This document shows positions 5,758 through 20,498 of a DNA stretch of 64,000 nt, in pieces. How positions within the stretch are numbered: the stretch's first letter is position 1; every line of letters begins with the position of its first letter. This DNA comes from Alphaproteobacteria bacterium (GTDB lineage: Bacteria > Pseudomonadota > Alphaproteobacteria > SP197). The stretch is from positions 628,172 to 692,171 of the forward strand of contig CBDCRU010000002.1 of the NCBI GenBank assembly GCA_965221115.1. The letters are read 5' to 3'. A model generated the notes under the pieces. It did not search any database, was not told the origin of the DNA, and saw nothing but the letters and a program-made list of their open reading frames with translations. Position numbers and translations under genes: made by a program.

Positions 5758-6618
5758 TCACGCGTCGTCTGTCTTTCGACGCAACGGCCTCGCAAACATG
5801 CGGGGCCGCGCTTCCCTCACCATCCATCTGGATGCCGGCCGGCCGCGCCTGCTCCGCTTCACAGTCTTCTCCCCTGACGCAAGGCGATCAAGGGACGGCT
5901 CCGAATCGGAAGAGAGCTCGGCCTCTGCGCCGTCGATCGCCCCCTGACTTGGCCCAAGGAGAGCAACAGGTGGTTCCAAAACGCGAGCATGTGGGGCTGC
6001 CCGGGCGCGGACAACCGGTTCGAAGGACGACGCGGCTGTGAATGCGCCGCTGTCGCGCACGAACCTCTGGAAGTTTCCCGGATCGAGAGGAGTGTTCCAG
6101 ATCGTTTCATAAACCTTGCGCAACTCTGCGACCGTGAAGGCTGACGGGCAGAACTGTGCGGCGATTGTCGTCGTTTCGAGTCTTGAGCGGATCCGGTCCA
6201 CCGCATCCTCGACGATCCGGTCGTGGTCGAAGGCGAGACGAAGAGCGCCGCTTTCGATCCGGTCCACGGGCACGAGATCGGCAGCTGCCGCGTCGCTGCC
6301 GCCCCGGGGACGGGGAAGATTGGCGGTGATGGCCCAGAAGGCGACGGTGACTGTCCGCATGCGCGGGTCCCGCGCCGGATCGCCATAGGCGGCGAGCTGT
6401 TCAAGGTGCCAAGCGCCGCGGGCGAGGCCGGTCTCTTCCTCGAGCTCCCGGGCGGCCGCCGCCTTGAGATCCTCGTCGGGAAGGACGAAGCCGCCCGGCA
6501 GGGCAAGGTCCCCGCGGTAGGGGTCCCCGCCACGCTCGATCAGCAGAATCTTGAAGGTGTCATCCTCGATGGTGAAGAGCGCTATGTCGACGGTGACGGC
6601 AAATGGCGGATAACTCAC
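5758..6618 (-). CDS. NrtR-like Nudix-related transcriptional regulator (Nudix domain plus C-terminal winged helix)
   Basis: Perfect Nudix box GGFVLPDEDLKAAAARELEEETGL; the C-terminal region LAFDHDRIVEDAVDRIRSRLETTTIAAQFCPSAFTVAELRKVYETIWNTPLDPGNFQRFV resembles the NrtR DNA-binding domain. Start is placed at GTG 6618 (GAGGAA RBS 6 nt upstream); an in-frame ATG at 6681 lacks an RBS and lies inside the operator palindromes. Confidence 0.7.
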   Translation of the reverse strand: MSYPPFAVTVDIALFTIEDDTFKILLIERGGDPYRGDLALPGGFVLPDEDLKAAAARELEEETGLARGAWHLEQLAAYGDPARDPRMRTVTVAFWAITANLPRPRGGSDAAAADLVPVDRIESGALRLAFDHDRIVEDAVDRIRSRLETTTIAAQFCPSAFTVAELRKVYETIWNTPLDPGNFQRFVRDSGAFTAASSFEPVVRARAAPHARVLEPPVALLGPSQGAIDGAEAELSSDSEPSLDRLASGEKTVKRSRRGRPASRWMVREARPRMFARPLRRKTDDA

Positions 6619-6650
6619 GGTGATTCCTCGCTGGCTCGTCCTCGGAATAT

Positions 6651-6671
6651 TTATTGTTGTATTGACAATAA
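6651..6671. promoter_or_regulatory. 21-bp palindromic operator candidate TTATTGT-N7-ACAATAA (site 1)
   Basis: ttattgttgtattgacaataa; 7-bp arms are perfect reverse complements; lies in the divergent intergenic region between the NrtR-like gene and the operon at 6720. Confidence 0.5.
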
Positions 6672-6682
6672 TGAACGCCATA

Positions 6683-6703
6683 TAATTGTCAGTGTCACAA
6701 TAA
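6683..6703. promoter_or_regulatory. 21-bp palindromic operator candidate TAATTGT-N7-ACAATAA (site 2)
   Basis: taattgtcagtgtcacaataa; same half-site as site 1 with one mismatch; centre-to-centre spacing ~32 bp; ends 4 nt before the RBS gaaggagg of the 6720 gene. Confidence 0.5.
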
Positions 6704-6719
6704 ACTGAAGGAGGCCAGC

Positions 6720-7640
6720 ATGACCATACCCTGCCTTGAAAACGCCGCCGTAGGATCTCCAATCACGCGCCTCGGTGTCTCGTTCTTCCCTGTCTATCTG
6801 CAGGACAACCGCCTTCCGTCCATCGACACCGGCGGTTCGTCGGGATTGATCGTCAGCGAGTTCGATGTCGCGACAGTCGGGGCACTGCAGGTCACCAATC
6901 CAACTGACAAGCCGATCCTGATCGTCGAGGGTGAACATTTCACCGGCGGCAACCAGAATCGCACCATTAACGCCACCGTTCTCGTCCCGGCCGGATCCAA
7001 GCTCGATATTCCCGTGTCGTGCCTGGAACAGGGCCGATGGGGTCGCCATCGGGCATGGCGCCGCGCTGAGGCCTTCACGCCCGAGCGGATCCGGAAGAGG
7101 AAGCGGGCGAGCGTCAACAGGTCCTTCAGTGTCAACCAGGACCGCAGGAGCGATCAGGGTGCCATCTGGGACGACATCTCGGCCATGATGCTTCGTGAAG
7201 GTGTCGCTTCACCGACAAGTGCCGCCGAAAAACTGGGAGAATCCTATCGGCGTCTCCCCTCCCACAGGGAAACCGTCGAAGCCCTGGTTGAACGTGGTCC
7301 GCTTCCCGGACAGTGCGGCATTGTCGTGGCGCACGGCAGGGATGTCACAGCCATGGATCTCTTCGGTGCACCGCATCTTCTCCGCAAACACTGGGGAGCG
7401 CTGGTGCGGTCACACTTCATCGAAACCGGACAGTCCAAGGGTCACCCGTCTGCCACCCTCGCCCTCAGGAGAGTCAGGCGGCTGGCAACATCGCCGGCCG
7501 AGACCGGACCCGGTGTCGGGCTCGGTTGCGAACACCGGGTGACCGGGCGCCGTCTGACAGGCCAGGCCCTGGTCCTGGATGATGCACTGATCCATGCCTC
7601 GTTCTCGTACGACCCAGGTCGGAGCGCGCACCATGGTTGA
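6720..7640 (+). CDS. Hypothetical protein (306 aa), first gene of an operon with an ADP-ribosylglycohydrolase
   Basis: Strong RBS gaaggagg; no signal peptide or TM segments; no family recognised by eye; its stop overlaps the next gene start (ATGGTTGA). Confidence 0.6.
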   Translation: MTIPCLENAAVGSPITRLGVSFFPVYLQDNRLPSIDTGGSSGLIVSEFDVATVGALQVTNPTDKPILIVEGEHFTGGNQNRTINATVLVPAGSKLDIPVSCLEQGRWGRHRAWRRAEAFTPERIRKRKRASVNRSFSVNQDRRSDQGAIWDDISAMMLREGVASPTSAAEKLGESYRRLPSHRETVEALVERGPLPGQCGIVVAHGRDVTAMDLFGAPHLLRKHWGALVRSHFIETGQSKGHPSATLALRRVRRLATSPAETGPGVGLGCEHRVTGRRLTGQALVLDDALIHASFSYDPGRSAHHG

Positions 7641-8697
7641 TGATCGCGCGCGGGGCCTGATGGTCGGACTGGCTGTCGGCAATCTCCTGGGGATCACGAC
7701 TGAAGGGTGGCAAGCCAGGGCGATCGCCGAGGCCTTTCCCCGGGGCATGGAGGACATCGTGGCACGATCCGGGTATCCCGACGACGACGACCTGGCGCAG
7801 GCCATCATCATTGCCGAAGCAGCAACGGGCGGAGACGGTCTCGACATCGATGACCTTGGCCGGCGCTTCTGGCGCTGGGCGGAAGTGAACGGTGCGGGAA
7901 TGGGCGGACTGACCGGAGCCGTGCTGTCGCTCTACGGCGGCGACTATCCACAACGGCTCGCCCGCGGGCGCTGGAACGGCGAGCCCCGCGAACCAGCAGG
8001 CATGCCGATCATCGAGGCGTCGCGGGAGGGGTGGAAAGGTGGTCGCGCCGGGAACGGAGCACTCATGCGTACGTCACCCTTGTCGATCCTCTGGCGCGAT
8101 GACAGGGACCGGCTGGTGTGCGAGAGCGTGGTCTCGGCCGTGCCGACACACTGGGACGTGCGGTGCGGCTGGTCGTGCGCGATCGCAAATCTCGTCACGG
8201 CCGCGGCTCTCAATGGCACCTCCCTGGGTCCGGACATGCTGATGAGGGAAGCCGAGGCAGGCATGGCGGCGTCTTTGCCGAGGCTTGGGGCCTTTGGCTA
8301 TGATGTGCGGGCGCCGTACAGTGTGGTGAAGGCGGTTGACGAGGCGTCGGTCTCGACGCTGGATGACCTGAGCTTCGATGGCCACGACATGGGGTACACG
8401 TTGCTGTCGCTCCAGGCGGCGCTGATTTCCCATTGGCGGGCGGAGGACTTCGAACAGGGTCTGCGCCAGGTGATCGAGGCGGGCGGTGATACCGACACCA
8501 ACGGCGCCATTGCCGGTGCTGTGCTGGGCGCCCGCTTCGGCCTCGAGGGCATTCCCGAACGCTGGCGTCGACGGGAGGCCGAGTTAAGGGCCGGGCGCAT
8601 CCGGATGGAGGACTGCGCCGACCGGTTGATGGCCGGCGCTCGGAAAAGGGCGTCAGCTAGAACTGGCCCCCTTCTCCACCCTGACCCGTTGGTTTGA
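7633..8697 (+). CDS. ADP-ribosylglycohydrolase (ARH/DraG family)
   Basis: GLAVGNLLG near the N-terminus, GNGALMR, and GGDTDTNGAIAGAVLGARFG near the C-terminus are ARH-family signatures. Start is set at ATG 7633, overlapping the upstream stop by 8 nt; the six-frame ORF begins at 7594. Confidence 0.8.
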   Translation: MVDDRARGLMVGLAVGNLLGITTEGWQARAIAEAFPRGMEDIVARSGYPDDDDLAQAIIIAEAATGGDGLDIDDLGRRFWRWAEVNGAGMGGLTGAVLSLYGGDYPQRLARGRWNGEPREPAGMPIIEASREGWKGGRAGNGALMRTSPLSILWRDDRDRLVCESVVSAVPTHWDVRCGWSCAIANLVTAAALNGTSLGPDMLMREAEAGMAASLPRLGAFGYDVRAPYSVVKAVDEASVSTLDDLSFDGHDMGYTLLSLQAALISHWRAEDFEQGLRQVIEAGGDTDTNGAIAGAVLGARFGLEGIPERWRRREAELRAGRIRMEDCADRLMAGARKRASARTGPLLHPDPLV

Positions 8698-14997: not shown

Positions 14998-16305
14998 TTG
15001 ACAGTTTTCGCGCTTGCTACGGCGCCCGGCCGGGCTGCCATCGCCGTGATCCGGGTCTCCGGCCCGGCTGCCGGAGAGTCAGTGAAACAACTCACCGGCA
15101 AGGATCTGCCTGCCGCCCGGCTGGCTGTGCTGCGCCGCCTTCAGAACGGCCGGTCGGGAGAGTTGATCGATCAGGCCCTGATTTTGTGGTTTCCGGGACC
15201 TGCCACCGTCACGGGAGAGGATGTGGCGGAGTTCCACGTCCACGGCGGTCGCGCGGTGGTGCACGGTGTTCTCGACGCCCTTGCGTCCGTGCCCGGTGTG
15301 CGGCCCGCGGAACCGGGGGAATTCACCAGGCGGGCCGTGCTGAATGGCAAGATGGACCTTGTGGAAGCGGAAGCAGTGGCGGATCTTGTGGCCGCGGACA
15401 CGTCACGCCAGCGCCACCAGGCTCTCGGTCAGCTCCAGGGGCTGCATTCGGCCCTCTATGACGGGTGGCGTCAGCGCCTTGTCGACGCCATGGCCCGTCT
15501 CGAGGCCGTGATCGACTTTCCCGACGAGGAATTGCCGGCCGGCCTCCTTGGCGAGAACACAGCGGTCGTCACGGCTCTCGAAGAGGAAGTGCGTGCCCAT
15601 CTTGATGACGGACGCCGCGGCGAACGGCTGCGCGAGGGCTTGAGTGTCGTCATTCTCGGGGCGCCCAATGTCGGCAAGTCGAGTCTTCTCAACGCCCTTG
15701 CCGGAAACGAAGCAGCCATTGTCTCGGCGGAGGAGGGGACGACCCGGGATACTGTCGAGGTCACCATGGACATTGCCGGCTTCGCCGTCTCCCTTGTCGA
15801 CACCGCTGGGTTGCGTGAGGTGCCGCAAGGTGTTGAAGAAGAAGGGATTCGCCGGGCGTTGACGAGAGCGGAGGCGGCTGATCTGACGCTGCTCGTTGCC
15901 GATGCCAGCCGTTGGGACGAAACCTGGCGCCGCGTCGAATCCCATTGCAGCGAGAATGCAATTGTCGTGGCCGGAAAGGCCGACCTCGCCCGTCCTCCCC
16001 CGGGAGTCTCCGGCCTTTCCGCGAAGACCGGAGAGGGGATTGACCATCTGATCGATGCCATGGCGCAGCACTTTCGGCGGGCCTGGCAGGGAGCGGGACT
16101 GTCTCCATCGCGGAACCGGCACAGGGCCGCACTTCTCCAGGTTGCGGACGCCCTTGCACGCTACGGGCATCCTGAAGCGGGCGACATCACGCTGGCTGCC
16201 GAGGATTTGCGCCTTGCGGCCACGGCGCTGGGGAGGCTCACGGGCAGGGTGGATGTCGAGGACCTTCTCGACGTGATCTTCTCGGAGTTCTGTATCGGAA
16301 AGTGA
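14998..16305 (+). CDS. mnmE: tRNA modification GTPase MnmE (TrmE)
   Basis: G-domain GAPNVGKSSLLNAL, C-terminal CIGK; TTG start. Confidence 0.95.
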   Translation: MTVFALATAPGRAAIAVIRVSGPAAGESVKQLTGKDLPAARLAVLRRLQNGRSGELIDQALILWFPGPATVTGEDVAEFHVHGGRAVVHGVLDALASVPGVRPAEPGEFTRRAVLNGKMDLVEAEAVADLVAADTSRQRHQALGQLQGLHSALYDGWRQRLVDAMARLEAVIDFPDEELPAGLLGENTAVVTALEEEVRAHLDDGRRGERLREGLSVVILGAPNVGKSSLLNALAGNEAAIVSAEEGTTRDTVEVTMDIAGFAVSLVDTAGLREVPQGVEEEGIRRALTRAEAADLTLLVADASRWDETWRRVESHCSENAIVVAGKADLARPPPGVSGLSAKTGEGIDHLIDAMAQHFRRAWQGAGLSPSRNRHRAALLQVADALARYGHPEAGDITLAAEDLRLAATALGRLTGRVDVEDLLDVIFSEFCIGK

Positions 16306-16306
16306 G

Positions 16307-16322
16307 TGTTTCACGTGAAACA
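16307..16322. other. parS: parS centromere-like site (second perfect copy)
   Basis: TGTTTCACGTGAAACA again, between the mnmE stop and the mnmG start. Confidence 0.85.
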
Positions 16323-16362
16323 ACGCTTTGACCCGCCGGTGCGCCGACACTACATTCCAGAC

Positions 16363-18225
16363 ATGACGCACGATTTTTCCCATGATGTCATCGTCATCGG
16401 TGGCGGACATGCCGGCACCGAGGCGGCTGCGGCTGCGGCGCGGTGTGGCGCAGCGACGCTTCTTGTGACCCTGCGCCGTGAGACCATTGGCGCCATGTCG
16501 TGCAATCCCGCCATCGGCGGCCTCGGCAAGGGGCACCTGGTGCGTGAGATTGACGCCCTGGACGGAGTCATGGGACTGGCCATCGATCGCTCCGGCATCC
16601 AGTTCCGTCTTCTCAATGCCAGCAAGGGCCCCGCCGTCCGGGGCCCCAGAGCCCAGGCCGACCGGTCGCTCTATGCCCAGGCAGTCAGAAATATTATTCA
16701 AGAACAACAAGAACTTGACGTTCTCGAAGGTGAGGTGTCAGACTTGGTTGTAGACACGGACGGAGGGATTGCCGGCGTCAGGCTCGCCGACGGCAGGGTC
16801 TGTCGTGGTCGTGCCGTGATTCTCACCACCGGAACCTTCCTGCGCGGGATGATTCACGTCGGTGACGAGCGCTGGCCGGCGGGACGGATCGATGAGGACG
16901 CCACCGTGGCGCTTGCCGCGACGCTCGAGCGGCACCGCTTTTCCCTTGGACGATTGAAAACGGGGACGCCGCCGCGGGTTGACGCAAGGACCATCGACCA
17001 TGCCGCCCTGGAGGTCCAACCCGGAGACGATCCTCCGCAACCGTTCTCGTGGCTGACGGACGCCATCACCGTGCCGCAGGTTCCCTGTCATGTGACGGCG
17101 ACCACGAAGGCCACGCACGACGTCATTCGCGCCAACCTTGACCGTGCGCCTGTCTATTCCGGCCGTATCGACGGTACCGGTCCCCGTTACTGCCCGTCCA
17201 TCGAGGACAAGGTGGTGCGGTTCGGCGACCGGGAAAGCCACCGGATCTTTCTGGAGCCCGAGGGCCTCCAGACCACGACGGTCTACCCGAACGGCATTTC
17301 CACGTCGTTGCCGCGCGATGTCCAGGAGGCCTTCGTCGCCACGATACCGGGTCTGACGGGAGCGCGCATCCTGCGTCACGGCTATGCCATCGAGTATGAC
17401 TACGTCGACCCGCGCCAGCTCGATCACACGTTGCAGGCACCGCGGATTGCGGGTCTGTTCCTGGCGGGCCAGATCAACGGCACCACCGGATACGAGGAGG
17501 CGGCGGGCCAGGGACTGGTCGCCGGAATCAACGCGGCGCGCTTCGCTGGAGGTCTTCCCGGCGTACGGTTTGACCGGGCAGAAGCCTATCTCGGCGTCAT
17601 GATCGATGATCTCGTCACGAGAGGGACCACCGAGCCCTACCGCATGTTCACGAGCCGGGCGGAGTACCGTCTCGTTCTGAGGGCCGACAATGCCGACCTG
17701 CGTCTCACGGCGAAGGGCCGCGAGGCCGGGTGTGTCGGCGAGGCCCGATGGCGCGCCTTCTTGCGACGCCGCAACGAGGTCGGGGCGGCCATGATGCGGG
17801 CGTCGGAACTGCGGGTCAGTCCGGACGAAGCGTGCGCGGCAGGGTTCGACGTCAATCGGGACGGTCGTCGGCGAAACCTGTTCGACCTCGCGGCTTCGTC
17901 AGGCGAGGGCGATCAACGGCTGCTGGCCCTGTGGCCGGAGATAGCGTTCTGGCCGGATCATGCCATGGACCAGGTGAGAATTGCCGGTCGCTACCAGGGT
18001 TACCTGGGTCGCATGGAAGCGGACATTGCCGCCTTTCGCCGTGACGAGGCCCTCACGCTTCCTGCCGGCCTCGATTACGCTCGAATTGGCGGACTGTCTG
18101 CGGAAATGCGCGAGACGATGTCAGCCACCCGTCCGGCCACGCTTGGACAGGCGGCACGGCTTCCCGGAGTGACACCGGCCGCCCTGCAGGCCCTGCTTCG
18201 CCATGTCAGGCGGAGTGCGGCATGA
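16363..18225 (+). CDS. mnmG: tRNA uridine 5-carboxymethylaminomethyl modification enzyme MnmG (GidA)
   Basis: [18 protein letters not shown]-binding N-terminus; ATG at 16363 chosen over the longer ORF from 16306. Confidence 0.95.
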
Positions 18226-18836
18226 TCCGCGACGAGGTGTGCCGGCTGCTTGGCGCATCGCCGGAAACATCCGAGCGCCTCGCCGCCTACGTTGCCGTTC
18301 TCGGGGAATGGCAACCGCGTCTCAAGCTCATCGGCCCCGGTACGGTTGATGAGATATGGGCGCGGCATGTACTCGATTGCGGACAGATCGCCCGCTACGT
18401 TCCGCCGACCTGCCGGCGCCTCGTGGATCTCGGGTCGGGCGCCGGTCTGCCCGGCCTGATTCTTGCCATCATGGGGGTCGCCGGCGTCGAGATGGTGGAG
18501 CGGGATGAGAGCAAGGTGGCGTTTCTTCATGCCGCAGCCAATGTCTGTGATGTCGATGTCGGCATTCACGGCATGCGCATCGAGGATCTTCCACGCGGAC
18601 AGGCTGATGTCGTGACGGCCCGTGCCCTGGCTCCCCTCGATGTTCTCCTGCCCATCACGGCCTCCTTTCTGGGTGAGGGCTCCGTTGCCATTTTCCCCAA
18701 GGGAAGATCCGTGGACGACGAACTGAAGTCCGCCGCCCGTCACTGGCACATGTGGTTCCAGCGCCACCCCAGTCTTTCGGATGCGCGATCCAGCGTTCTG
18801 GTCATCAACAGGATACACCATGACTCTCGACCGTGA
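18222..18836 (+). CDS. rsmG: 16S rRNA (guanine527-N7)-methyltransferase RsmG (GidB)
   Basis: [20 protein letters not shown] motif; start overlaps the mnmG stop (ATGA). Confidence 0.9.
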
Positions 18837-19623
18837 CCGCGTTGCACGGCCCCTGGTGGTGGCCGTCGCCAACCAGAAGGGTGGGGTGGGCAAGACGACC
18901 ACCGTCATCAACCTTGCAACCGCCTTTGCCGCCACAGGACACAAGGTCCTCGTCGTCGATGCCGATGCCCAGGGAAATGCCAGCACGGGTCTGGGTGTCG
19001 AGCAGCCGGCCAGAACCGCAACGACATACGACCTGCTGAACGGGGAGCGCGTGACTCCGGCGCCGACCATGATACCGGGCCTCACCATCATTCCGGCGAC
19101 TGCCGATCTTTCCGGTGCAGAGGTTGAACTGGTTGATGTTCCCGACCGCCAGAATGTTCTCGCAAGGGCGTTGTCGGAGGTGGCCGCCGGACATGAATTC
19201 GTGCTTGTCGACTGTCCGCCGTCGCTCAACCTGATGACGATCAACGCCCTGGTTGCCGCCGACGAGGTCCTGGTGCCCATGCAGTGCGAGTTCTTTGCCC
19301 TGGAGGGTCTCTCGCTTCTGCTCGACACCATCGAGAGGGTTTCGGGTACCCATAACCCGGGACTCCACATAGGCGGGATCGTGCTCACGATGTTCGATCG
19401 CCGGAACCGCCTGTCCCGTGAGGTGGAACGGGATGTGCGCCGCGTCATGGGGGATGTCGTCTACCACACGCTCATTCCGCGCAATGTCAGGGTCAGTGAG
19501 GCGCCATCACACGGTATGCCTGTGATTCTATACGATGTTGACTGTGCGGGCGCGCGCGCCTACGTGCGCCTGGCACGTGAATTCCTGCGCCGCCATGCCA
19601 CGCAATCAGAGAGTGCCGCATGA
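18820..19623 (+). CDS. parA: Chromosome partitioning ATPase ParA
   Basis: Deviant Walker A VANQKGGVGKTTT; start chosen at ATG 18820 ([16 protein letters not shown]...). Confidence 0.9.
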   Translation: MTLDRDRVARPLVVAVANQKGGVGKTTTVINLATAFAATGHKVLVVDADAQGNASTGLGVEQPARTATTYDLLNGERVTPAPTMIPGLTIIPATADLSGAEVELVDVPDRQNVLARALSEVAAGHEFVLVDCPPSLNLMTINALVAADEVLVPMQCEFFALEGLSLLLDTIERVSGTHNPGLHIGGIVLTMFDRRNRLSREVERDVRRVMGDVVYHTLIPRNVRVSEAPSHGMPVILYDVDCAGARAYVRLAREFLRRHATQSESAA

Positions 19624-20498
19624 CGAGATCGAGAGGCCTCGGGCGCGGCCTCGACGCGCTCATCGGAACGCCGGCAAGGACAGCTGTCTCCGGCATGCGC
19701 ACCGTTTCCATCGCGGAACTGAGGCCCGGCCGTTTTCAGCCACGCACCCGTTTCGACGATCAGGACATCGACGGCCTGGCCCGCTCTCTCGCGGACAGCG
19801 GCATGATGCAGCCCATCATCGTCAGGCCCGCTGCCGACGGCATGATGGAGATTGTCGCCGGTGAGAGACGCTGGCGGGCGGCGCAGCGGGCGAAGCTCCA
19901 CGATGTTCCGGTTGTCATCAAGGAGATGAGCGACCGCGAGGCCCTGGAACATGGTCTGGTCGAAAACCTGCAGCGCGAGGATCTCGGTCCCGTGGAGGAA
20001 GCGGCGGGCTACCGCCGTCTCAACGAGGAATTCGCCCTGACCCAGGAGGAGATTGCGGCCCTTGTCGGCAAGGGCAGGGTCCATGTCGCCAACACGCTGC
20101 GCCTCCTCCAGCTTCCCGAACCGGTGCGCAAGCTGATCAATGAAGGACAACTCAGTGCGGGCCATGGACGTGCCCTGCTGGGAGCCCGCCAGCCGGAGGC
20201 GCTGGCCGCGCGCATTCTGAAGGAGCGTCTGTCGGTGCGCCAGACCGAGGCCCTGGTGCGCAGTCAGGATCAACGCTCGGGTCGTAGCGGACGGACGAGA
20301 CACGTCGATCCCGACATCCGGGCACTCGAACGACGGCTTGGCGAGGCAACAGGCCTGAAGGTCGCGATCAGCCCGAAGGGCGAGAAAGGGAGACTGACAC
20401 TGACCTACCGGACCCTTCAACAGCTCGACGACATCATTGCGCGCCTCGAACGAGGTCTCATAATTCCAGACAACCGACAAACCGAGGAGGCATCATGA
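19620..20498 (+). CDS. parB: Chromosome partitioning protein ParB
   Basis: MTRSRGLGRGLDALIG N-terminus, the GERRWRAA ParB box and an HTH region; overlaps the parA stop. Confidence 0.9.
   Translation: MTRSRGLGRGLDALIGTPARTAVSGMRTVSIAELRPGRFQPRTRFDDQDIDGLARSLADSGMMQPIIVRPAADGMMEIVAGERRWRAAQRAKLHDVPVVIKEMSDREALEHGLVENLQREDLGPVEEAAGYRRLNEEFALTQEEIAALVGKGRVHVANTLRLLQLPEPVRKLINEGQLSAGHGRALLGARQPEALAARILKERLSVRQTEALVRSQDQRSGRSGRTRHVDPDIRALERRLGEATGLKVAISPKGEKGRLTLTYRTLQQLDDIIARLERGLIIPDNRQTEEAS

Follow-up and report, generated by a model that had tools for sequence, protein, structure and literature searches.

An ARPP-1 family gene coupled to an ADP-ribosylglycohydrolase gene and divergent from an NrtR-like regulator gene in an alphaproteobacterial genome

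Widespread gene neighbourhoods centred on an ADP-ribosylglycohydrolase (ARG; ARH for the gene studied here) but without a linked ADP-ribosyltransferase (ART) were described by Iyer, Burroughs, Anantharaman & Aravind in 2022, who singled them out precisely for that missing partner (PMC9503650, section 3.8). A Nudix-helix-turn-helix (HTH) or WYL-HTH repressor is present in more than 42% of these neighbourhoods and a phosphatase in about 55%, a peptide-binding chaperone is frequent, and ARPP occurs in some; the systems were predicted to counter viral ADP-ribosylation and were classed as conflict systems (PMC9503650). ARPP itself was predicted to be an enzyme with an absolutely conserved Cys and Gln, the target of which would be ribose moieties from ADP-ribose (ADPr) (PMC9503650). 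Here we describe an ARPP-1 family gene at positions 6720-7640 of a 64,000-nucleotide stretch from an Alphaproteobacteria bacterium (assembly GCA_965221115.1, contig CBDCRU010000002.1, positions 628,172 to 692,171 of the forward strand; the whole stretch is called the window below), together with the ARH gene that overlaps its end and the NrtR-like regulator gene that diverges from its start.

The regulator belongs to a second well-described setting. NrtR sites are palindromes of 21 bp that share a GT-N7-AC core (Rodionov et al. 2008, PMC2330246). NAD synthesis and salvage are under the control of those NrtR regulons that have been characterised, an nrtR-draG linkage occurs in Streptomyces, and characterised members of the class respond to ADPr (PMC2330246). 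Association with ADP-ribosylglycohydrolases and rhodanese-phosphatase enzymes defines the Pfam family PF20208 (ARPP-1). The ARPP name is said to come from de Souza & Aravind in 2012. Literature matches to "ARPP-16/19" concerned an unrelated eukaryotic protein and were set aside, and PMC13069673, examined for a connection to ARPP, shows none.

Set against these descriptions, the window locus is a clean example of a computationally described, biochemically untouched three-gene module predicted to respond to ADPr. Its genes and the signals that join them are as follows.

5758-6618, minus strand: NrtR-like regulator gene, divergent from ARPP-1, with NUDIX and NrtR_WHD domains
6708-6714, plus strand: ribosome-binding site AAGGAGG, read off the sequence, 5 nt ahead of the ARPP-1 ATG
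6720-7640, plus strand: ARPP-1 family gene, 306 amino acids (aa), ATG start, PF20208 over its full length
7633-7640, plus strand: 8-nt stop/start overlap ATGGTTGA, the ARPP-1 TGA at 7638-7640 against the ARH ATG at 7633
7633-8697, plus strand: ADP-ribosylglycohydrolase (ARH/ARG) gene, 354 aa, PF03747 ADP_ribosyl_GH, E 9e-46

The open reading frame (ORF) at 6720-7640 runs for 306 codons from its ATG uninterrupted by stops, as seen in the ORF list and its translation, and the existence of relatives at 92% identity in a related metagenome-assembled genome (MAG) and at 50-60% across several phyla shows that the gene is real. The original prediction had described it as carrying a strong ribosome-binding site, as overlapping the ARH gene by 8 nt and as lacking transmembrane segments, and all three descriptions stand: the AAGGAGG element lies 5 nt ahead of the ATG, the product of the gene downstream of the overlap matches PF03747, and the maximum 19-residue Kyte-Doolittle mean is 1.15, which leaves no hydrophobic segment, so that a secreted or membrane protein was rejected. 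The same prediction held that the protein contained no motif that could be placed. This was overturned by an end-to-end match to PF20208 (E 6.9e-64; 216.4 bits against a cut-off of 27), in which residues 10-295 align to profile positions 3-296 of 297. No NCBIfam model matched ARPP-1, and no paralogue was found within the window. A word-index search gave 401 homologues, all those listed carrying PF20208, and a filter-only HMMER scan across 1.84 billion cluster representatives placed 5900 representatives of 50%-identity clusters in the family at E <= 0.001, of which 3088 reached E <= 1e-10.

Gene context was compared in 80 loci (one genome per species, probed with the three window proteins and covering 6 kb around), obtained by a pattern-based scan that favours close relatives of the window ARPP-1. 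A divergent NrtR-like gene stands immediately upstream of ARPP-1 in 75 of them. ARH was directly downstream of ARPP-1, or fused to it, in 24 loci, mostly from Alphaproteobacteria and Paracoccaceae MAGs, and in about six further loci an ARH gene, or a fragment of one, lies at another place within 6 kb. The linkage to ARH that had been expected in other genomes was thus confirmed in part, by the 24 direct or fused cases and by about 30 of 80 within 6 kb, and was missing from the other 50 close relatives, which have no ARH within 6 kb of ARPP-1. The loci checked from Acidobacteriota, Gemmatimonadota, Rhodothermales and Spirochaetia have an unrelated gene after ARPP-1; such genes include IS481-type transposases, an HTH-M78 protein, an enolase-superfamily enzyme and an oxidoreductase.

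At least L002-L006, L008 and L010 keep the ATGNNTGA junction between ARPP-1 and ARH, and comparable junctions occur in L016, L026, L048, L065 and L080. Five Paracoccaceae loci (L023, L036, L042, L055 and L064) encode ARPP-1 and ARH in frame as a single polypeptide, the ATGNNTGA junction being replaced by an in-frame link such as GTCAAGGTTGATGCG, and truncated versions of the fusion occur at two further loci from Paracoccaceae MAGs (L018, L028). The database proteins P0121 and P0260 are likewise ARPP-1-ARH fusions with the domains in gene order. Because the 8-nt overlap is kept in relatives and natural fusions follow the gene order, we conclude that ARPP-1 and ARH are translationally coupled through ATGGTTGA, ARPP-1 being gene 1 and ARH gene 2 of a two-gene operon.

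The ARH protein has the metal-site motifs of its family (the DD in YPDDDD, and GGDTDT), and among solved structures its best relatives, in which the GGDxDT motif aligns, are the Thermus ADP-ribosylglycohydrolase 2cwc, DraG and ARH3. It scores 67 bits against the NCBIfam DraG equivalog (cut-off 337) and 64 bits against that of Tri1 (cut-off 490). An in-frame upstream ATG at 7594 would lengthen the ORF in the ORF list; the start at 7633 is likely the correct one, because the alignment of homologues sets in with the Met at that position and related loci conserve the ATGNNTGA junction. In the alphaproteobacterial locus L009 the first ARH is followed by a second, divergent ARH paralogue (L009:8397-9404), which is 34% identical to the window ARH. 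In L001/L007, which are the same place on OZ219747.1, NrtR and ARPP-1 are intact, with ARPP-1 84% identical to the window protein, and ARH is present as fragments split by an opposite-strand gene for a 1973-aa fn3-repeat protein; this genome appears to keep ARPP-1 without a working ARH.

ARPP-1 is also linked to other domains. ARPP fusions to protein tyrosine phosphatase (PTP) domains exist, again with a divergent NrtR upstream, and vWA-ARPP and HIRAN-ARPP fusions are present in protein databases. Six more distant relatives were sampled singly for their neighbours; with their identity to the window ARPP-1, they are these.

P0153, 35%: a DSPc phosphatase gene overlaps the ARPP-1 start
P0189, 33%: divergent NrtR, with a DSPc phosphatase downstream
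P0262, 31%: divergent NrtR, then a macro-domain gene
P0164, 34%: neighbour of a SAD/SRA-domain protein
P0223, 32%: no ADPr-related neighbour
P0175, 33%: no ADPr-related neighbour

The linkage of ARPP-1 to ADPr chemistry is real and deep. The NrtR sensor is the constant partner in the window clade, and the ARH or macro eraser and the phosphatase are exchangeable. The part of the original prediction that made the protein an ADP-ribose-processing partner has support from context only, as a functional tie to ADPr through fusions and neighbours (ARH, phosphatase) and NrtR. The HIRAN- and vWA-fused members (P0215, P0124) and the SAD/SRA-adjoining member (L092:978-1994) are hints that some relatives may act on DNA instead of on free ADPr; the link to SAD/SRA, a modified-base-binding domain, comes from one 2-kb contig.

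The divergent regulator was then considered together with the region that it shares with ARPP-1. It contains NUDIX (PF00293, E 1.2e-16) and NrtR_WHD (PF21906, E 1.7e-08) domains and matches NCBIfam NF050029, an ADPR-responsive repressor, at E 1.6e-33; because the score is 116 bits and the cut-off 400, the regulator, judged by sequence, is not the named NF050029 equivalog. Its probable start is the GTG at 6618, which is preceded by a GAGGA Shine-Dalgarno sequence and leaves an intergenic region of 101 bp, and for many homologues from other phyla the alignment sets in at residues 22-24 of the long form. The longer ORFs that begin with ATG 6681 or TTG 6762 were rejected, as they would translate the AT-rich palindromic operators as protein; a longest-ORF annotation, taking in 6619-6762, would mask the regulatory region. 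The window regulator, like 68 of 76 homologues, has an intact Nudix box, GX5EX7REUXEEXG, so the regulator may itself hydrolyse its ligand, ADPr included. Two predicted operators lie between the genes.

6651-6671, no strand assigned: predicted operator A, 21-bp palindrome TTATTGTTGTATTGACAATAA with a GT-N7-AC core
6683-6703, no strand assigned: predicted operator B, 21-bp palindrome TAATTGTCAGTGTCACAATAA, 37 nt upstream of the ARPP-1 start

Operator A contains TTGACA (6662-6667) on the plus strand, that of ARPP-1, and on the minus strand the -10-like TATTGT of a predicted nrtR promoter, the -35-like CTGACA of which lies in operator B; this promoter, CTGACA-16-TATTGT (6692 to 6665, minus strand), thus has one hexamer in each operator. 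A search with the pattern TWATTGT-N7-ACAATWA returned two perfect matches in the window against 0.03 expected, and no further copy was found there even allowing two mismatches. Of 81 loci, 60 have the same motif (consensus WTATTGT-N7-ACAATAW) ahead of ARPP-1, usually twice per locus at about 72 and 36 nt ahead of the start codon, and 91 of the 148 sites in 1.03 Mb of loci fall within the 230-bp windows upstream of ARPP-1.

We next considered the ARPP-1 protein itself. An AlphaFold2 model, built on 48 homologues, reached a mean predicted local distance difference test (pLDDT) score of 90.1 and a predicted template modelling (pTM) score of 0.90. The order of its secondary structure (strands at 15-115, helices at 122-192, strands at 200-215, helices, and four strands at 260-297), which gives a beta-rich N-terminal part, a helical middle and a C-terminal four-strand meander, would be compatible with the published barrel-in-meander description of ARPP. 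The excised insert 28-198, modelled alone, gave a pLDDT of 57 and was left out of the fold search. Foldseek comparison of the model returned no match at E <= 0.001 against the PDB (to 2026) or against viral models (BFVD), and phmmer and a 66-sequence profile run against all PDB sequences gave chance matches only (E >= 0.012). No ART, macro, sirtuin or Nudix fold surfaced in these searches; the original prediction had already remarked that it contained no obvious H-Y-E or R-S-E motif of ARTs and no macro, sirtuin or Nudix signature. With no significant PDB match by Foldseek, the ARPP-1 fold is, to judge from the model, one without a solved relative.

Conservation was scored over 66 diverse family members at 27-57% identity. 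Twelve positions are invariant (P24, E47, G71, G76, Q79, R81, C101, R106, W107, Q146, W150 and G200), eight of them polar, aromatic or Cys, and N60, E103, G105, R125 and H292 are conserved at 90% or more. Most of the invariant residues fall in three motifs.

6927-6962, plus strand: conserved motif 1, EGEHFTGGNQNR, residues 70-81; G71, G76, Q79 and R81 invariant
7011-7043, plus strand: conserved motif 2, PVSCLEQGRWG, residues 98-108; C101, R106 and W107 invariant
7149-7169, plus strand: conserved motif 3, SDQGAIW, residues 144-150; Q146 and W150 invariant

Across the family motif 1 reads EGEHxxGGxQNR (70-81). Motif 2 reads PVSC[LV]ExGRW (98-107), with P98, V99, E103 and G105 at least 90% conserved, and lies at the end of strand 93-101; motif 3, SDQGAxW, lies at the start of helix 146-160. 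Motif 2 is a candidate catalytic Cys loop of the form C-x4-R. The spacing in C-L-E-Q-G-R (C101-R106, 7020-7037) presumably resembles that of rhodanese and Cys-phosphatase active-site loops, in a different fold. The enzymes that the loop recalls are also the ones often linked to ARPP-1. The invariant Cys/Glu/Gln/Arg/Trp set would fit an active site that binds a nucleotide-sugar or a phosphate.

The reading that we prefer, and to which we give about an even chance, is that ARPP-1 is an ADPr-induced enzyme that uses Cys101 on ADPr or on its ribose or phosphate, partnered by ARH and controlled by NrtR. NrtR would bind the palindromes at 6651-6671 and 6683-6703 and, since these cover promoter-like elements of both divergent genes, would keep both off. 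Free ADPr or a close derivative, supplied by NAD+ consumption or by turnover of ADP-ribosylated macromolecules, would release the repressor, as expected from characterised NrtR proteins. ARPP-1 and ARH would then be produced together through the ATGGTTGA overlap, presumably in stoichiometric amounts; ARH would cleave ADPr off a modified macromolecule, and Cys101 of ARPP-1, with E47, Q79, R81, R106, W107, Q146 and W150, would bind and transform the ADPr product or its ribose or phosphate. Because the NrtR-ARPP-1 pair is far commoner in this clade than ARH, ARPP-1 would be the core ADPr-responsive activity and ARH, macro proteins and Cys-phosphatases its exchangeable accessories. Most sister loci have NrtR and ARPP-1 by themselves, so the target of ARPP-1 is probably a soluble molecule derived from ADPr and not the product of ARH alone. 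A more specific version, in which NrtR-ARPP-1, and not ARH, is the ancestral ADPr-responsive unit and the C101 loop forms a covalent thiol intermediate with ADPr or a phosphorylated derivative, is offered tentatively, and we think it unlikely. If true, it would add a hitherto undescribed step to the disposal or recycling of ADPr, turned on during NAD+ breakdown.

The surroundings of the locus bear on its biological setting. Within about 6 kb lie genes for a family-III CoA-transferase, an arginase-family protein, a permease, a Rieske oxygenase, an old yellow enzyme (OYE)/FAD reductase and a DUF255 thioredoxin-like protein, and two ORFs without a Pfam match; a profile search found no ART, sirtuin, macro, NAD-salvage, phosphatase or chaperone gene within that distance on either side. 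The GC content of the module (0.62-0.68) is like that of its flanks except for an AT-rich intergenic dip, and an island acquired horizontally was rejected on this composition. Farther along, a row at 14998-20498 that resembles mnmE-mnmG-rsmG-parA-parB, recognised by eye from translations, would suggest an origin-proximal part of the chromosome.

In other genomes the NrtR-ARPP-1 module looks mobile. Relatives of ARPP-1 at 50-60% identity are found almost only in MAGs of very different phyla (Alphaproteobacteria/Paracoccaceae, Bryobacterales, Vicinamibacterales, Longimicrobiales, Rhodothermales and Spirochaetia), and several isolate names (APA_bin, SB0661_bin) match MAG sets of Aplysina aerophoba and Ircinia ramosa sponge symbionts (PMC11706023). 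This suggests horizontal spread of ARPP-1 in the marine-invertebrate microbiome, as seen by a scan that favours close relatives. Multiple NrtR-ARPP-1 copies occur on one Vicinamibacterales contig (L037, L038, L041) and in one alphaproteobacterial MAG (L010, L011), some copies within one genome being near-identical duplicates, and IS481-type transposase genes lie directly downstream of ARPP-1 in L015, L046 and L062. When 2.9 million viral contigs were scanned for the family motif, a single match came up (L085:6001-6195, an IMG/VR contig), a fragment of 64 residues (44-107) at 54% identity that lies within no listed ORF of at least 80 aa and is probably a remnant; since this ORF-less fragment was the only match, ARPP-1 does not look phage-borne.

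Several points weigh against the enzyme reading. Catalysis by ARPP-1 is drawn from conservation alone, and the invariant Cys/Arg/Trp set could equally form a ligand-binding pocket. The NrtR effector and the binding of NrtR to the palindromes are assigned by analogy, and the HIRAN and SAD/SRA links mean that the substrate may not be ADPr family-wide; P0223 and P0175 have no neighbour tied to ADPr at all. The window locus stands amid housekeeping genes with no sign of a defence island, and in the literature on ARPP-1/PF20208 we found no biochemical or genetic experiment, only the computational description (PMC9503650). In order of falling confidence, the rivals make ARPP-1 an adaptor, a conflict effector, a housekeeping enzyme of ADPr disposal or an ART writer. 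A non-catalytic adaptor, which would recognise ADPr or an ADP-ribosylated target and pass it to an ARH, macro, Cys-phosphatase or HIRAN-linked partner, is unlikely but suits the constancy of ARPP-1 among exchangeable partners, and both the fusions and the translational coupling suit a stoichiometric complex. Invariant Cys, Glu, Gln and Arg residues over 27-57% identity are, however, more typical of an active site, and most close relatives have ARPP-1 and NrtR alone, with no catalytic partner nearby. We think it distinctly unlikely that ARPP-1 is a phage-conflict effector, induced when infection raises ADPr through NADase defences or viral ARTs, and acting on nucleic acid or sugar-containing targets in invader or host while ARH, as a helper, supplies the inducer. 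ARG-centred systems are indeed classed in this way (PMC9503650), related loci have at their flanks IS481-type transposases, an HTH-M78 (ImmA/IrrE-like) gene and a gene that resembles an antitoxin, several copies occur per genome in a clade scattered patchily across phyla at 50-60% identity, and some members are fused to or adjoin the DNA-binding modules HIRAN and SAD/SRA. Yet PADLOC has no model that matches ARPP-1 or ARH and matches NrtR only marginally (E 0.0036), the window locus lies between ordinary metabolic genes with a composition unremarkable apart from the AT-rich dip, a defence phenotype is unreported, and the clade is well conserved (67% mean column identity in alignment A1) and not obviously fast-evolving.

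Less weight still falls on a housekeeping enzyme of NAD salvage or ADPr detoxification, belonging to the NrtR regulon and unrelated to phage conflict. The known regulons with their Streptomyces nrtR-draG linkage (PMC2330246), the housekeeping character of the chromosomal surroundings and a regulator whose intact Nudix box may hydrolyse ADPr would all suit it, but no NAD biosynthesis or salvage gene stands beside the module, the window holds no operator beyond the two, and the copy number and insertion-sequence association in relatives look mobile and not core-metabolic; this reading also overlaps the enzyme reading, from which it differs mainly in biological setting. Very improbable indeed is the DraT-like writer of the original prediction, a new DraT/Tre1-like ART, possibly a toxin, with ARH as its eraser or antitoxin. 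Gene order and overlap do resemble writer-eraser or toxin-antitoxin pairs, ARPP-1 and DraT are similar in size, and ARH-type antitoxins such as DarG3 are known (PMC13069673). Against this, sequence, profile and Foldseek searches matched no solved ART, which leaves the writer without support, and a writer or toxin that needs an eraser would be odd in the 50 of 80 close relatives that carry no ARH within 6 kb, or in the one genome whose ARH is interrupted. It would be futile to join a writer to its own eraser in a single chain, and the published systems were chosen for lacking a linked ART (PMC9503650).

The family, its linkage to ARH and the gene architecture are already in Pfam and PMC9503650, and the locus is no new kind of system. 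What is new here is NrtR, in place of ARH, as the constant partner in this clade, the operator motif with its dual arrangement, the intact Nudix box, the list of invariant ARPP-1 residues, and fold searches that stay negative up to the 2026 PDB. The ARPP-1 family is very large and has neither a solved structure nor a detectable fold relative; NrtR-type sensors, the ARH and macro erasers and Cys-phosphatases wire it into the ADPr signalling of bacteria. Its reaction, once worked out, would fill a gap concerning the ADPr that comes from NADase defences, ADP-ribosylating toxins and phage enzymes, and the window offers a minimal, well-delimited module of one regulator, two clear predicted operators, ARPP-1 and ARH.

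In comparison with the described systems, the window protein agrees with the PF20208 ARPP-1 family in its full-length profile match, in its possession of the required Cys and Gln (C101; Q79 and Q146), in the adjoining ARG and Nudix transcription factor, and in the ARG association given by the ARH that overlaps its stop codon. It differs in that the constant neighbour in its clade is NrtR instead of ARH or a phosphatase; no difference was found that excludes it from the family. With the ART-less ARG-centred systems (PMC9503650) the locus shares an ARG without an ART or sirtuin within about 6 kb, a Nudix-HTH regulator and ARPP, but it is a minimal set of three genes without rhodanese-phosphatase, chaperone or restriction endonuclease (REase) modules. 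As phosphatase and chaperone are frequent and not obligatory in those systems, their absence does not exclude membership, whereas the many sister loci without ARG make the label a poor fit for the window clade. The NrtR regulons (PMC2330246) are matched in the Nudix plus winged-helix regulator, the 21-bp GT-N7-AC sites, the divergent and presumably autoregulated arrangement and the nrtR-draG linkage. Here, by contrast, the target is ARPP-1, with or without ARH, and not a gene of NAD biosynthesis, salvage or pentose metabolism, and most members keep an intact Nudix catalytic box. DraT/DraG and Tre1/Tri1 resemble the locus in the tight coupling of an ARH-family hydrolase to a partner gene of about 300 aa, and differ from it in that the window partner has no ART fold or motifs and the ARH falls far below their equivalog cut-offs. 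A further parallel, drawn by Iyer et al. (PMC9503650), is with SRAP proteins (HMCES/YedK), which cross-link covalently to sugar through a Cys; ARPP-1 shares an invariant Cys and a sugar-aldehyde context, in the anomeric carbon of free ADPr and in the HIRAN and DNA links of some members.

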